A DNA stretch of 64,000 nucleotides. Origin: an uncultured Chthonomonadaceae bacterium (GTDB lineage Bacteria > Armatimonadota > Chthonomonadetes > Chthonomonadales > Chthonomonadaceae). Numbering within the stretch: position 1 is the stretch's first letter; every line of letters starts with the position of its first letter. Both the position numbers and the translations under genes were made by a program. The stretch is taken from the NCBI GenBank assembly GCA_963817895.1, contig CAWFQB010000005.1:512001-576000 (forward strand). Reading direction: 5' to 3'. The notes beneath the pieces were generated by a model that was not told where the DNA came from, did not search any database, and saw only the letters and a program-made list of their open reading frames with translations. Shown here in pieces: positions 26,327 through 32,054 of the stretch.

Positions 26327-26634
26327 GTTTGCCCTGCCTCCTTTTGTTAAAACCAATCCGTTGTTTTCAGCCATCAGCGCTGCTTCAGGCCGACAGGCAC
26401 AGTATACTAAAACAGAGCGCCAAAAAGCATGTTTTCATGCCACTCGCAACACATTCTTCCCCCTCTTTCAGCCCCGCTCTTTCGGGCAGGCATTTTGAAG
26501 TATGTAGGGCGGGGGCTTGTCCCCCGCCGATGCGGTCTACGTTCCGCCAAAAAGGAAGCGTTTTGAGACAATCGTACTCCCATAACAACAGCCCCACACC
26601 CGTTGGCGATAATGCGCAGGCAAATGCGCGAACA

Positions 26635-28427
26635 ATGCCGTCGGGCAAGCCGGATATCAAGGTGTTTCGCCGCGTGTGGCCGTACCTGCATCCCTATCGC
26701 GCTAAAATCGCGCTTGGCGTGGGCCTGCTGCTCATTTCTACGCCGCTCGGTTCCGCGCATCCGCTGATCTGGAAGTACATCGTGGATGATGTTGTCGGCC
26801 TGCGCCATGTCAATCATTTATGGCCTGCCCTGCTGGCGATGTTCGCCATTCAGGGAACGGCAACCCTGCTGGACGCCATGAAAAGCATCCTGCTGGAACG
26901 GGTCGGGCAAAAGTTCGTGTTCGATCTGCGCAGCGCGGTGTATCAGAAACTACAGTCGCAGTCCCTCGCGTATCTCAGCGACAACCGTACCGGCGATCTG
27001 ATTTCGCGGGCGATGTCGGATGTGGACGTGTTGCAGGAGGTGGCGTTTCAATCCATTGATTCGGTTTTGGGCAACACGCTGAGTTTTCTGGTGGTGGCGG
27101 GCATCCTGATTCATCTCAACGCGAAACTCGGCGTCGTGACGCTGCTGCCAATTGTGGTGGTGTTCTTCCTGACGCGCTTTTTCAATACCCGCGTAAAGGC
27201 TATTTACCGGCAGGCGCGGGATCGGCTGGGCGAAGTGAACGCGCGGTTACAGGAGAATCTGACCGGACTGACGCTCATCAAGGCGTTTGCCAAAGAGCGG
27301 TACGAAACGGAGCGGTTTCAGGGCGTGGCGCGACGGCTATATGCAGACGAATTTTCGCGCCATCTTCGCCCGCAACACGTTCTTTCCCGCCGTGCGCTTC
27401 ATCGGCTTTTTCAGCAACATTCTTTCCGTCGGCTATGGCGCGTGGCTCGTCCTGCACGGGCAGTTTACCGTTGGCGGGTTGGTGGCGTATCGCGGTTACT
27501 GGTGGCAGCTTTTCAGTCCTATCAACAGCCTCGCGACCATCAACGAACTGTTGCAGCGGGCGAACGCGGCGGGAGCGCGCGTGTTTGAACTGCTGGACGC
27601 GCCGGAAAGCGTGACGGACGCGCCGGATGCCACAGACATGCGGCTGCGCCGGGGCAGACAGTTCCGTAGTTTTTCAGCAGGTGTCGATTCGGGTATGGCG
27701 ACAAGCCGATATTGCGGGACGTGTCGTTCCGTGTGGAGCCGGGGCAGATGATCGCGCTTGTCGGGCCGTCCGGCGCGGGCAAAACAACCGTTCTCAACCT
27801 GCTTCCCCGCTTCTGGGACGTGACAGACGGGCGTATTCTGATCGGCGGGCAGGACATACGCGGCGTGACGCAGGAGAGTTTGCGCCGCCATCTGGCAATC
27901 GTTTTGCAGGAGACGTTTCTGTTCAACGGCACGTCGTGGACAACATCCGCTACGGCAGGCCGGACGCGAGCAAGGAAGAGGTGGAAGCCGCCGCCCGCGC
28001 CGCGAATGCCTACGACTTCATACAGGAATTGCCGCAGGGTTATGAAACCGAAATCGGCGAACGAGGCGTCAAACTATCGGGCGGGCAGCGGCAGCGGTTT
28101 AGCATTGCCCGCGCCTTCCTCGCCAACCCGGATATTCTGATTCTGGACGAGCCGACATCCAGCGTGGAACCGGAAAGCGAAGCCATCATCACGCAGGCGT
28201 TGGAGCGGCTCATGCAGGGCCGGACGACGTTCGTCACTTCGCACCGCTTTTCCCTTGTGCGCGGAGCCGACAAAATTCTTGTCTTTGAGGAGGGGCGGCT
28301 GGTGGAAGCAGGAAACCATAGCGAACTGATGGCGCAAAACGGATTGTACGCCGAAATGTACAGCCTGCAAATGGGCCACTCACAATTACAACAGGTACAG
28401 AAGGAAGAACTGGAGGTTATGCGATGA
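26635..28427 (+). CDS. ABC exporter, fused permease/ATPase (MsbA-like), frameshifted
   Basis: TM domain RTGDLISRAMSDV, Walker A GPSGAGKT, LSGGQRQR, ILILDEPTS across three frame breaks; start uncertain. Confidence 0.9.
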
Positions 28428-29746: not shown

Positions 29747-29838
29747 AATAATTTCAGCATCGCCCTTGACATATAGCGGTATCCTGCTATAATGCTACTA
29801 TGAACAGTTTGAGACACTGTGTAAAGGAGGATACAGCC

Positions 29839-30045
29839 ATGTCTGTTGTAGATGTTCCCCCCAAAATTTTGGAGGCAACCAACTCCAATATTCCCCCTGC
29901 CATCAATCCTGAAGAAGCTGACGAGCGGGAGTGGGCATTACAATTTGCAGCCTCCGGCGATTTTCTGATGCAACTTGTCGCTGAAGCGCGCGAAGAGCGG
30001 AGGCAGGGGCTACTTCTCCCGTTAGACACGGTTCTGGATGAGTAA
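29839..30045 (+). CDS. Putative antitoxin
   Basis: Small acidic ORF with AAGGAGG RBS, DEREW..QFA.S...L..L..EA..E motif, directly upstream of the toxin. Confidence 0.75.
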   Translation: MSVVDVPPKILEATNSNIPPAINPEEADEREWALQFAASGDFLMQLVAEAREERRQGLLLPLDTVLDE

Positions 30046-30050
30046 GCCCA

Positions 30051-30311
30051 ATGGAATCGCATACCACGCGCAGGTTTCGTAAACTCTACAAAGACCTTCA
30101 GCCAGATATAAGGAAAGATGCCAAAGACTCCTACAATCTCTGGAAAATAGACCCTTATCATTCCAGTCTTCATTTTAAAGCGCTGGAAGGCCATACGGAT
30201 TTATGGTCTGTCAGAATAGGATTGGGATGGCGGGCAATTGGCGAAAGAATTGGCGATGAGATTACATGGATATGGATTGGCTCCCATGCTGGCTATGATA
30301 AGCGCATATAG
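30051..30311 (+). CDS. ParE/RelE-superfamily toxin
   Basis: TTRRFRKLY..L, DPYHSSLHFKAL, WSVRIGLGWRAIG, W.WIGSHAGYDK. Confidence 0.85.
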   Translation: MESHTTRRFRKLYKDLQPDIRKDAKDSYNLWKIDPYHSSLHFKALEGHTDLWSVRIGLGWRAIGERIGDEITWIWIGSHAGYDKRI

Positions 30312-30350: not shown

Positions 30351-30392
30351 AAACCCCGCTAATTACTTGGTAAGTAATTAGCGGGGTTTTTT
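30351..30392. terminator. Bidirectional intrinsic terminator
   Basis: AAACCCCGCTAATTACTT-GGT-AAGTAATTAGCGGGGTTTTTT between convergent genes. Confidence 0.9.
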
Positions 30393-30401
30393 CTTGAAGT
30401 G

Positions 30402-31802
30402 CTACCCGAACGGCAGGAGCAGTTTGGTTAGCGTGGCGCGAACTTCGTCCGGGGTCGTCATGCCGACCGCCTGCACGATGCCTTTTTTGTTGACCACGAT
30501 GTTGATGGGGACGCCGCGCAACCCCAACCGCGTCATGTACTCGCCCTCCGCATCTATCAGCACGTCGTTATGCAGTTTATGGATGGAGCAGAAATGCTTC
30601 GCCTCGTCCGTCGGCTTCACATGCTCCCACACGTTGATCATGACCACTTCCAGGCCATACGCTTTGGCGCGACGCGCCACCTCTTCTAATAGCGGAGCCT
30701 CCGCATTACAGGGCCCTCACCAACTGGCAAACATGTTGATGATATACGGCTTGCCGTGCCACTCGGCGGACGTGCGTATCTGCCCCGAATTCATATCCGG
30801 CAGGCTGAACGGCGGAACCGGCTGCCCGATAAGCGGATGCTTGACGCTTTTGGGCAACGTCGCGGGCTTGGCCTGCAAATTGTCCCGAAACACGCTGATG
30901 CTGTTGCTGCCCGCATTGGACACGAAGATCGTGCTGGTGGCCTCGTCTACCGCAAGGTCGCCCGGCGCTTCCCCGACGGGAACTCGCGCCCACTCCTTGC
31001 CGCTGGCATAATCAATCACGCTGATGCTGCCCGCGCCCCGATTGGCGGCATAGATGTGCGTTCCGGCTTTGCCGCTCGCCATGCCAACGGGCGCGCGCTC
31101 GACGGAAATCGTATCCACAACCTTTTCTTTGTTCAGGTCTACGACCGAAACCGTGCTGACAAGCGAGTTGGCGATATAGGCGCGGGCGCGAGGCACGTCA
31201 ATGACGATTTTGCACGGCGCGTAATCTACTTTAATCTCCCCGATGGCCTCATTCGTCGTGCCGTCAATAATGGTAATGGACGCATCCCCGAAGTTGACGC
31301 AGTACACTTTGTCGCGGGACGGATCGGGCGCGATGCTTCCCGCCGCCAGTTTCGCCGGAACCACGGCCAGAACTTCCAGCGTGTCCGCGTCAATCACGCT
31401 GACCGTGCTGGCGGCCGTGTTGCCCGTATAGATTTTGCGCTTTTCGGGATACGCGCCGATGCCCGCCGGGTAGGTGCCGACAGGAATCTGCTTGATGAGT
31501 GTCATCTTCTCGGCGTCAATCACGCTGCACAGGTCTTCGCGCGCATCGGACGTGAATACGCGCTTTGTGGGCGGGTCATACGCAAGCCCGATGGGTTCCT
31601 TGCCGACCGCCACTTCGCCAATGGACTTGAGCGTGTCCATGTCGAAAACAGTGACGCTGTTGCTGCGCGGGCAGGCCGCAAAGCCCCGGCGCAGTTCGGG
31701 AACCAGGACAATGCCTTCAGGCCCTAGCCCGACGGTTATTTCGCCAAGCGAAGGGAACGCATCCCCCGTTTGGACGGGTGTAGGTGGAGCGGAACGTGCC
31801 AA
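30402..31802 (-). CDS. YncE/YVTN beta-propeller fused to a TlpA/redoxin domain; probable selenoprotein (UGA at 30719-30717)
   Basis: Propeller repeats, then PPFSLPD...YIINMFASW-TGA-GPCNAEAPLL continuing in frame to LRGVPINIVVNKKG; 466 aa with readthrough. Confidence 0.88.
30687..30708 (-). promoter_or_regulatory. Bacterial SECIS-like hairpin
   Basis: UAAU-GCGGA-GGC-UCCGC-U-AUUA; apical loop begins about 17 nt after the UGA and contains G. Confidence 0.7.
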
Positions 31803-32054
31803 ATACTTCTCCCTGAATAAAACGCTGGCGTTAAAACCAGTGTTTGAAAAACGTCTTTCCCTGTTCTCGCGCTGTTTCGTTCAGCGGGACGGAAAAACGC
31901 GGTTGTGTGACAGCCTGTAAAACGGTACAATGTCGTGTGTCATCGTCACGCGCTGAATAGAGCTATGGGACAACTTTGAACATACCTTCAAGGAGTATAC
32001 CATACAGGGCTGATGTTCCATAAATATCGCGGGCGGTGAAATCAAAATGGAGGC

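Follow-up and report, generated by a model that had tools for sequence, protein, structure and literature searches.

The gene and its interrupted reading frame

The DNA considered here is a window of 64,000 nucleotides (nt) from an uncultured Chthonomonadaceae bacterium (Armatimonadota; GCA_963817895.1, contig CAWFQB010000005.1, positions 512,001 to 576,000), and its subject is a minus-strand gene that would encode a YVTN-type beta-propeller fused to a redoxin with selenocysteine (Sec, U) in the active site. The gene stands alone in the window, flanked by a divergent PAP2 gene on one side and a convergent ParE-like pair on the other. Read in the ordinary way it is a 361-aa open reading frame (ORF; 31802..30717) that begins with TTG and ends ...NMFASW at a TGA (30719-30717); past this TGA, 104 further codons run to a TAG (30404-30402) with no additional stop. 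From 31802 to 30402 the strand forms a single 466-aa frame whose sole in-frame TGA, codon 362, falls at the first position of the motif W-U-G-P-C. This translation agrees with a first-pass annotation, made from the letters alone, which had described a propeller ORF ending at TGA within ...FASW-stop-GPC. It had also read the 104-aa open extension as completing a TlpA/ResA-type redoxin, and the Pfam matches of the read-through product do run across the TGA (Redoxin, 60.3 bits against a cut-off of 26.6; AhpC-TSA, 60.2 against 26). Taken with the evidence below, Sec is almost certainly inserted at codon 362, which would make this a selenoprotein gene.

Conservation of the in-frame TGA

TGA, and never a Cys codon, occupies position 362 in all 17 distinct loci that span the site, drawn from Armatimonadota, Actinomycetota and one metagenome contig; the first-pass annotation had set this in-frame codon at the catalytic position apart from indel errors elsewhere in the assembly. 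The count leaves out the partial second copy in G334 (L028/L036; same sequence near the site), two loci that end before the codon (L040 and L041) and the duplicates L029, L030, L032, L133 and L140 (equal to L021, L022, L023, L035 and L033, respectively). A search of the phylum found the gene in 8 of 401 genomes, with one TGA in each; the close relatives are Chthonomonadaceae, as judged from named contigs, and three Actinomycetota genomes were added. Searches of two actinobacterial classes gave 2/401 and 4/401 carriers (the centre genome counted in each), four of them new, and no further carrier was found among 120 genomes of the family of G401. A metagenome scan returned 3 family members among 80 loci kept from the matches listed, the others being generic redoxins; one of the contigs covers the codon. 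Identity to the window protein within the propeller ranges from 39 to 96% (first 14 loci). In the phylogenetic tree the Armatimonadota sequences and the metagenome contig form one clade (98/98), apart from the actinobacterial sequences, and no donor is proposed because the tree was rooted for drawing only.

The part of the gene beyond the UGA is, by sequence comparison, under purifying selection. Against four relatives its pN/pS is 0.02-0.15, compared with 0.07-0.28 for the propeller, and it is conserved at least as much as the propeller in 13/13 comparisons with the window protein. Codons 363-366 vary synonymously with G-P-C-N fixed, and every internal start codon lies 3' of them, which means that they are translated.

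Protein databases appear to carry the footprint of a mis-called selenoprotein. Family members P0002-P0005, P0061 and P0063 end exactly at FASW; P0063 is RefSeq WP_381569886.1 from Streptomyces coelicoflavus, which ends FFASW, and the Armatimonadota/Actinomycetota family probably includes a cultured Streptomyces. Among 93 short protein matches, 88 were classed as post-UGA pieces (one, P0251, chimeric), 3 as ending in ASW and 2 as stand-alone Cys redoxins, unrelated and at 33-35% identity. The Cys redoxins P0252 and P0253 (WCGPCNAEAP) align at the TGA site, and Cys paralogues are also present in the genome. A full-length Cys form was not found in any locus or protein search, which is to be read as 'not found' rather than 'absent': one search scored the 7999 best candidates, another gave 1 match among 422 candidates, the metagenome scan covers the matches listed, and the best 150 matches of a profile search of 50%-representatives held none, although clustering could hide one. 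Long multi-propeller proteins dominate the latter search, in which two truncated family members score 386-390 bits. In the ESM Atlas the sole match is a cluster of truncated members of this same family (0.98; 87 members), named as a lactonase-fold propeller, and plasmids gave generic propellers only, none over 80% of the query. No sequencing run matched half of the sampled words. The codon is covered by contigs of relatives in runs X2 and X3, with 30717-30719 unchanged among the matches listed, which is weak evidence; RNA run X19 does not reach codon 362, and the runs gave no evidence of expression or habitat.

A candidate SECIS element

The hairpin that had been noticed just downstream of the TGA lies at 30708-30687, fits the model of a bacterial selenocysteine insertion sequence (bSECIS) and has frozen codons. 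Its loop of 3 nt starts with GG (30699-30697), 17 nt past the UGA, on an upper stem of 5 bp. The model, as given in section 5 of PMC13188914, has a loop of 3-9 nt, a stem of 4-16 bp and G in the first two loop positions, and further limits the spacing to 16-37 nt and the minimum free energy to <= -7.5 kcal/mol. Loop, stem and spacing of the hairpin lie within these ranges, and its energy, -7.5 kcal/mol when folded alone (z -1.88; 9/200 shuffles as good), lies exactly at the threshold. Across the 10 non-actinobacterial loci, 96 codons of at least fourfold degeneracy encode an invariant residue, and frozen codons among them are limited to 367, 369 and 370; among 63 invariant two- or threefold codons they are limited to 362 (the TGA) and 368. 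Codons 367-370 are the stem-loop. Across loci, the core stem is nearly invariant.

Three more UxxC redoxin genes in the genome have a triloop hairpin at +17 (C3:2465, C6:13945 and C11:128878), and the 13-nt hairpin core of the C3 gene is identical to that of the present gene despite 32% protein identity. The selD gene has a GUU triloop hairpin at +33. In a chance control with features chosen post hoc (a frame open for at least 100 aa, a G-starting triloop hairpin at +16 to +37 and xxC after the TGA), 302 of the 2544 TGA-ended frames of at least 250 aa in the genome stay open, 24 have the hairpin and 83 have xxC. All three features occur together in 3 frames, where about 0.09 would be expected if they were independent, and all three frames are UxxC redoxins.

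In the actinobacterial copies (L033, L034, L035, L134 and L141-L143) a longer hairpin is predicted, with its loop near +28 past the UGA. A double change is seen in 1 of 15 of its pairs, a weak hint that these copies may use this longer downstream structure.

Selenocysteine machinery in the carrier genomes

The source genome, 81% complete, contains tRNA-Sec (63.9 bits), selA (517.7 bits) and a selD that itself has an in-frame TGA (Sec-type). The gene for SelB lies at C14, about 204960-206850 (minus strand), spread over three frames whose pieces match model positions 1-255 and 450-579; the frameshifts most likely come from assembly indels. The machinery for which the first-pass annotation had suggested a search is present in the source genome, with selB frameshifted. 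Within the phylum sample, selA occurs in 8/8 Armatimonadota carriers, compared with 215 of 401 genomes overall, and Sec use looks common in Armatimonadota from the latter count. Among 16 carrier genomes, selA was found in 14 and either selA or tRNA-Sec in 15. In G753 one strand carries, in order, selA, selB, selD, selC (tRNA-Sec) and, directly behind it, this gene.

Domain architecture and predicted structure

TIGR02276 YVTN repeats match the protein at 150 bits (cut-off 27.85) in 6 stretches. An AlphaFold2 model built from 11 family sequences shows a seven-bladed propeller, a linker and a thioredoxin-fold domain, with a mean predicted local distance difference test score of 86.2 and a predicted template-modelling score of 0.85; the latter value, for a single chain, suggests a defined domain arrangement. 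The redoxin domain combines Pfam profiles above cut-off with a motif at the CxxC position, a G-V-P loop and the extra beta-alpha insertion. In thioredoxin-family proteins the equivalent loop holds a cis-proline, and this geometry is expected of G-V-P. In the propeller the conserved residues are E29, C44, R46, E69, R88, Y111, N170, F171, C197, S213, L214 and R255, which in the model sit in loops and strand ends on what would by convention be the top face, judging by strand order. A complex prediction of the propeller (residues 12-310) with the post-UGA piece scored 0.01, with the partner fold uncertain, and was used neither way.

None of the 19 N-terminal regions scored has a signal-like hydrophobic stretch (maximum 1.84, compared with 2.71 for a secreted paralogue), in line with the earlier remark that no signal peptide is evident. 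The 466-aa protein is thus probably located in the cytoplasm, in contrast to the C3 and C11 paralogues with their hydrophobic leaders.

Local layout and gene neighbourhood

Feature coordinates are collected in Table 1. No sigma-70-like promoter was found in the promoter scan, and an Rfam scan gave no match near its gathering score. The terminator role of the inverted repeat behind the gene is given as probable since the consensus terminator scan did not list the repeat. A terminator-like hairpin (31825-31840, minus strand) lies directly 5' of the ribosome-binding site, and the congeneric locus L029 has a similar hairpin with a changed stem in the same place, a possible leader element on the comparison of these two sequences. 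Downstream, window positions 29800-30311 (plus strand) contain an 81-aa ORF without a Pfam match and an 86-aa ParE-like toxin domain, probably a toxin-antitoxin module. An indel-type break in the assembly is seen in an ATP-binding cassette (ABC) transporter gene at 26329-28427 (plus strand), which is split into overlapping ORFs.

Table 1. Features of the propeller-redoxin gene and its flanks, in window coordinates.
Feature	Position	Strand	Basis
Full coding sequence, 466 aa with U362, TTG start, TAG stop	30402..31802	-	homologues align end to end
Shine-Dalgarno-like AGGGAG, 6 nt 5' of TTG	31809..31814	-	sequence; also before TTG in congeneric locus L029
In-frame TGA, predicted Sec362, opening U-G-P-C (30719-30708)	30717..30719	-	TGA in 17/17 distinct loci
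Candidate bacterial SECIS, UAAU-GCGGA-GGC-UCCGC-U-AUUA; core stem-loop 30704-30692	30687..30708	-	frozen codons, fold, SECIS model
Seven-bladed YVTN-type beta-propeller, about residues 18-306	30885..31751	-	AlphaFold2 model, fold matches, conservation
C44 of propeller	31673-31671	-	16/16 loci
C168 of propeller	31301-31299	-	16/17 loci
Cys197 of propeller	31212..31214	-	17/17 loci
Linker, residues 307-324, length variable across homologues	30831..30884	-	alignment, model
TlpA/ResA-type redoxin domain, residues 325-466	30405..30830	-	Pfam; solved relatives ResA, CycY, DsbE
C405	30590-30588	-	16/17 loci
G-V-P (430-432), expected cis-proline loop of thioredoxin fold	30507..30515	-	invariant in 14/14 loci
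Perfect 18-bp inverted repeat, 12 nt 3' of stop codon, probable terminator	30351..30389	.	between gene and convergent toxin-antitoxin-like pair

Around the homologues, two genomes of one Armatimonadota family have a phosphoenolpyruvate (PEP) mutase gene 3' of the gene (L120:99-8378, L122:10423-11271), and in L120 this belongs to a phosphonate-type cluster in which the PEP mutase is followed by a thiamine pyrophosphate enzyme, a class V aminotransferase and an Fe-alcohol dehydrogenase. Upstream of the gene, 3 metagenome loci have a branched-chain amino-acid ABC transporter and 1 locus has sel genes; the remaining neighbourhoods are unrelated. A family-wide pathway drawn from the neighbourhood was rejected, as the PEP mutase, ABC transporter and sel contexts each occur in few loci.

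Further tRNA and probable selenoredoxin genes

Two of the three further UxxC redoxin genes of the source genome, at G000:C6:13634-14695 (minus strand) and G000:C11 about 128023-129189 (plus strand), are paralogues with W-F-Y-x-U-G-A-C and a GUU triloop hairpin at +17. The C11 protein begins with a hydrophobic leader and includes an N-terminal DUF2092 (LolA-like) domain. No NCBIfam cut-off is reached by either paralogue, and from their sequences the two are possibly another uncatalogued fusion selenoprotein. The third, at G000:C3:2130-2702 (minus strand), is a ResA-like W-U-G-S-C redoxin with a hydrophobic N-terminus. ARAGORN reports a 72-nt tRNA with a CUA anticodon at G000:C11:90528-90599, labelled Pyl, which has an ordinary cloverleaf and no match in 4 related genomes; it may be an amber suppressor from a mobile element, or else an error in the sequence. 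Meanwhile, G000:C4:227906-230044 holds 16 tRNA genes on one strand, an array type found on integrated elements.

Discussion

The overall best explanation, to which a probability of roughly 0.6 is given, is a cytoplasmic Sec-x-x-Cys (UxxC) selenol/disulfide reductase with a substrate-docking propeller. Delivery of Sec by SelB bound to a SECIS is an established mechanism; here, SelB on the hairpin 17 nt past the UGA would deliver Sec-tRNA at codon 362, the Sec of W-U-G-P-C would attack as the nucleophile, and C365 would resolve it as a selenenyl-sulfide. The propeller face would dock a substrate or client beside the active site, as has been proposed for the thioredoxin-plus-propeller cleft of NHLRC2/SOQ1. 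A selenol/disulfide reductase is favoured because of the invariant G-V-P loop and the agreement of W-U-G-P-C with the classic motif of reducing thioredoxins, and reductase chemistry appears highly probable on these sequence features; that the propeller docks a substrate or client protein, the simplest reading of its conserved face, is given somewhat better than an even chance. The first-pass inference of a UxxC selenoenzyme draws support from the conserved TGA, the frozen hairpin codons and the Sec machinery.

Several observations weigh against this interpretation. The hairpin is not the minimum-free-energy fold of the 60 nt from the UGA (z -0.28), so folding energy alone is no evidence; the hairpin codons at +17 are not frozen in the 7 actinobacterial loci; and covariation in the hairpin is weak, with 74.6% of cells pairing and a score of 0.066, lower than that of a control slid by +3 (0.107). 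In the source assembly selB is broken and falls below the family cut-off. The phylum-sample carriers with selA are related and so do not amount to eight independent trials. In G403 selA was not found, with tRNA-Sec and the SelB wing present, while G401, the genome from which L033 comes, carries the TGA gene with no match for selA, selD or the SelB wing, and its sole tRNA-Sec match above cut-off is a tRNA-Ser. Incompleteness is a guess at the reason for this; as background, the SelB wing occurs in 59/231 genomes of the class of G401, a count that, alone among those given, takes in G947, G930, G938, G955, G966 and G959. No neighbourhood is conserved across the loci compared, and since neighbours differ between genomes they give no substrate. 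Finally, NHLRC2 was inactive in an insulin reduction assay (PMC6107167).

Readings in which codon 362 does not specify Sec fare poorly. A true stop, whether between two adjacent genes, by an inherited nonsense mutation or by assembly error, could appeal to the indel errors in this assembly, to G401, which keeps the TGA where Sec genes were not found, and to TGA being the commonest stop of long ORFs in the source genome (573/1493). It is nonetheless very improbable, as it must account for the same TGA in every locus across two phyla and a metagenome contig, for a G-P-C-N conserved as protein past the stop, for the G753 copy directly behind sel genes, and for a break that, in the model, would separate the first core strand of the thioredoxin fold from the active-site helix. 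The stop usage just cited excludes a general code change, and TGA also ends four of the homologues themselves. Insertion of Trp, Cys or another residue through a changed code or leaky read-through has nothing direct in its favour, UGA-to-Trp being reported in another actinobacterial family (PMC13462651), and is equally hard to credit given that tRNA-Sec is the sole tRNA found with a TCA anticodon and that redoxins have their catalytic Cys at the aligned position.

Two further alternatives accept Sec and differ over what the propeller does. The UGA might act as a selenium-dependent switch, with the propeller-only product having its own job and the selenoenzyme made when selenium allows. The propeller is complete (to residue 306) before the UGA, and a Cys back-up form was not found in the loci or protein searches; against this, about 55 residues of linker and half a redoxin would remain on the truncated product, and the post-UGA part is conserved more than the propeller, which makes a switch improbable. 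A propeller-only form had also been raised in the first-pass annotation: the completeness of the propeller stands, but a stop at the UGA would leave the remnant just described attached to it. Alternatively, the propeller itself may do chemistry, with the UxxC pair recycling one of its cysteines (C197 or C44) in the same chain, either in a sulfoxide or peroxide reductase step or so that thiols are kept reduced for cofactor or metal binding. The conserved cysteines C197, C44, C168 and C405 (counts in Table 1) and the many invariant charged or aromatic residues of the propeller are consistent with this, an enzyme subunit (hydrazine synthase beta) is among the structural neighbours, and the thioredoxin-like domain of SOQ1 is described as passing electrons to a domain of the same chain (bioRxiv 10.1101/2024.11.01.621559). 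That acceptor, however, is the C-terminal domain rather than the propeller (same source), and no propeller His is conserved, which argues against a His-type metal site; the idea is possible but on balance unlikely. A broader proposal, likewise unlikely, is that the UxxC redoxin and the Cys-bearing propeller face form one selenium-requiring catalytic site in a Sec-only family, possibly with the UGA also governing how much propeller-only relative to full-length protein is made. The docking reductase outlined above remains the preferred explanation.

Comparison with known systems

The UxxC redoxin domain is already a catalogued selenoprotein type: Table 1 of PMC13188914 includes the Redoxin family PF08534, a Prx-like thiol:disulfide oxidoreductase (PF00578) and a Thiol-disulfide isomerase-like UxxC protein (cd02966). 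The present protein resembles these in domain families above cut-off, in Sec in place of the first Cys of CxxC and in an in-frame (here candidate) SECIS. It differs in being fused behind a seven-bladed YVTN propeller, in having no export signal and in that the searches gave no Cys version of the fusion as a whole. The novelty therefore lies in the fusion family. The fusion was not found in the 119-entry inventory table of PMC13188914, in whose review text the word 'propeller' occurs 0 times. The word is also absent from the main text and part of the one supplement of BSepDB (PMC13326102), which may list such genes as generic redoxins, and from the main text of deep-Sep (PMC12013277) and five supplements of PMC5029168. 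A literature search by title and start of abstract found no work on a bacterial selenoprotein with a YVTN or beta-propeller and thioredoxin, and no whole-protein model of NCBIfam 20.0 reaches its cut-off, although the YVTN repeat model does. The first-pass view that the architecture is uncharacterised thus holds for the fusion in the catalogues searched and not for its redoxin domain; on sequence, this would be a known Sec-bearing domain in an uncatalogued fusion family seen only with Sec.

Each half has clear structural relatives. The closest folds to the propeller are an archaeal surface-layer protein (1l0q; Z 38.6, root-mean-square deviation 1.6, 275 aligned), E. coli YncE (3vgz; Z 38.5, 1.7, 288 aligned) and hydrazine synthase beta (5c2v; Z 37.7, 1.8, 285 aligned). 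The seven-bladed fold and TIGR02276 repeats are shared with YVTN/YncE propellers, but identity is 20-32%, the present protein carries a redoxin, and the NCBIfam cut-offs for YncE (77.9 against 400) and hydrazine synthase beta (88.6 against 560) are missed. The best solved relatives of the C-terminal domain belong to the ResA/CcmG(DsbE)/TlpA group (4nmu ResA, E 6e-16; 1kng CycY, E 3.5e-15), from which it differs in lacking a membrane anchor or signal peptide and in having Sec for the first Cys; the NCBIfam models for ResA, DsbE and TlpA score 57.8 against 170, 54.3 against 123.15 and 40.1 against 230. Assignment to the ResA-like WAxxUGC selenoprotein (NF041054) was rejected, at 44.3 bits against 300 and with the motif FASWUGPC here.

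The nearest parallel in design is NHLRC2/SOQ1, which, as described in PMC6107167, also carries a TlpA-like thioredoxin domain on the same chain as a beta-propeller, has conserved residues that suggest a shared functional site and has no conserved operon in bacteria. In those proteins the thioredoxin domain comes first, followed by six NHL blades and a C-terminal beta domain, and the motif is CC(I/V)NC (CCINC); here the propeller comes first, with seven YVTN blades and WUGPC, and a C-terminal beta domain is lacking. Neither the best 60 sequence matches nor the best 50 fold matches include NHLRC2. The reverse order, the six NHL blades and CCINC make NHLRC2/SOQ1 an analogue and not the same family; the human substrate of NHLRC2 was still undetermined in the 2018 structure paper (PMC6107167).

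The selenoprotein family added here spans more than one phylum, and public gene sets list its members as two entries, a 'YVTN beta-propeller protein' and a 'hypothetical protein' of about 80 aa. Taken by itself, the redoxin domain has numerous Cys relatives (about 30-35% identity), whereas the fusion has TGA at every locus read and no Cys form was found, so the family is a possible case in which to study what selenium can do and sulfur cannot. Furthermore, it would provide a small, soluble and independently evolved counterpart of the NHLRC2/SOQ1 thioredoxin-plus-propeller design.

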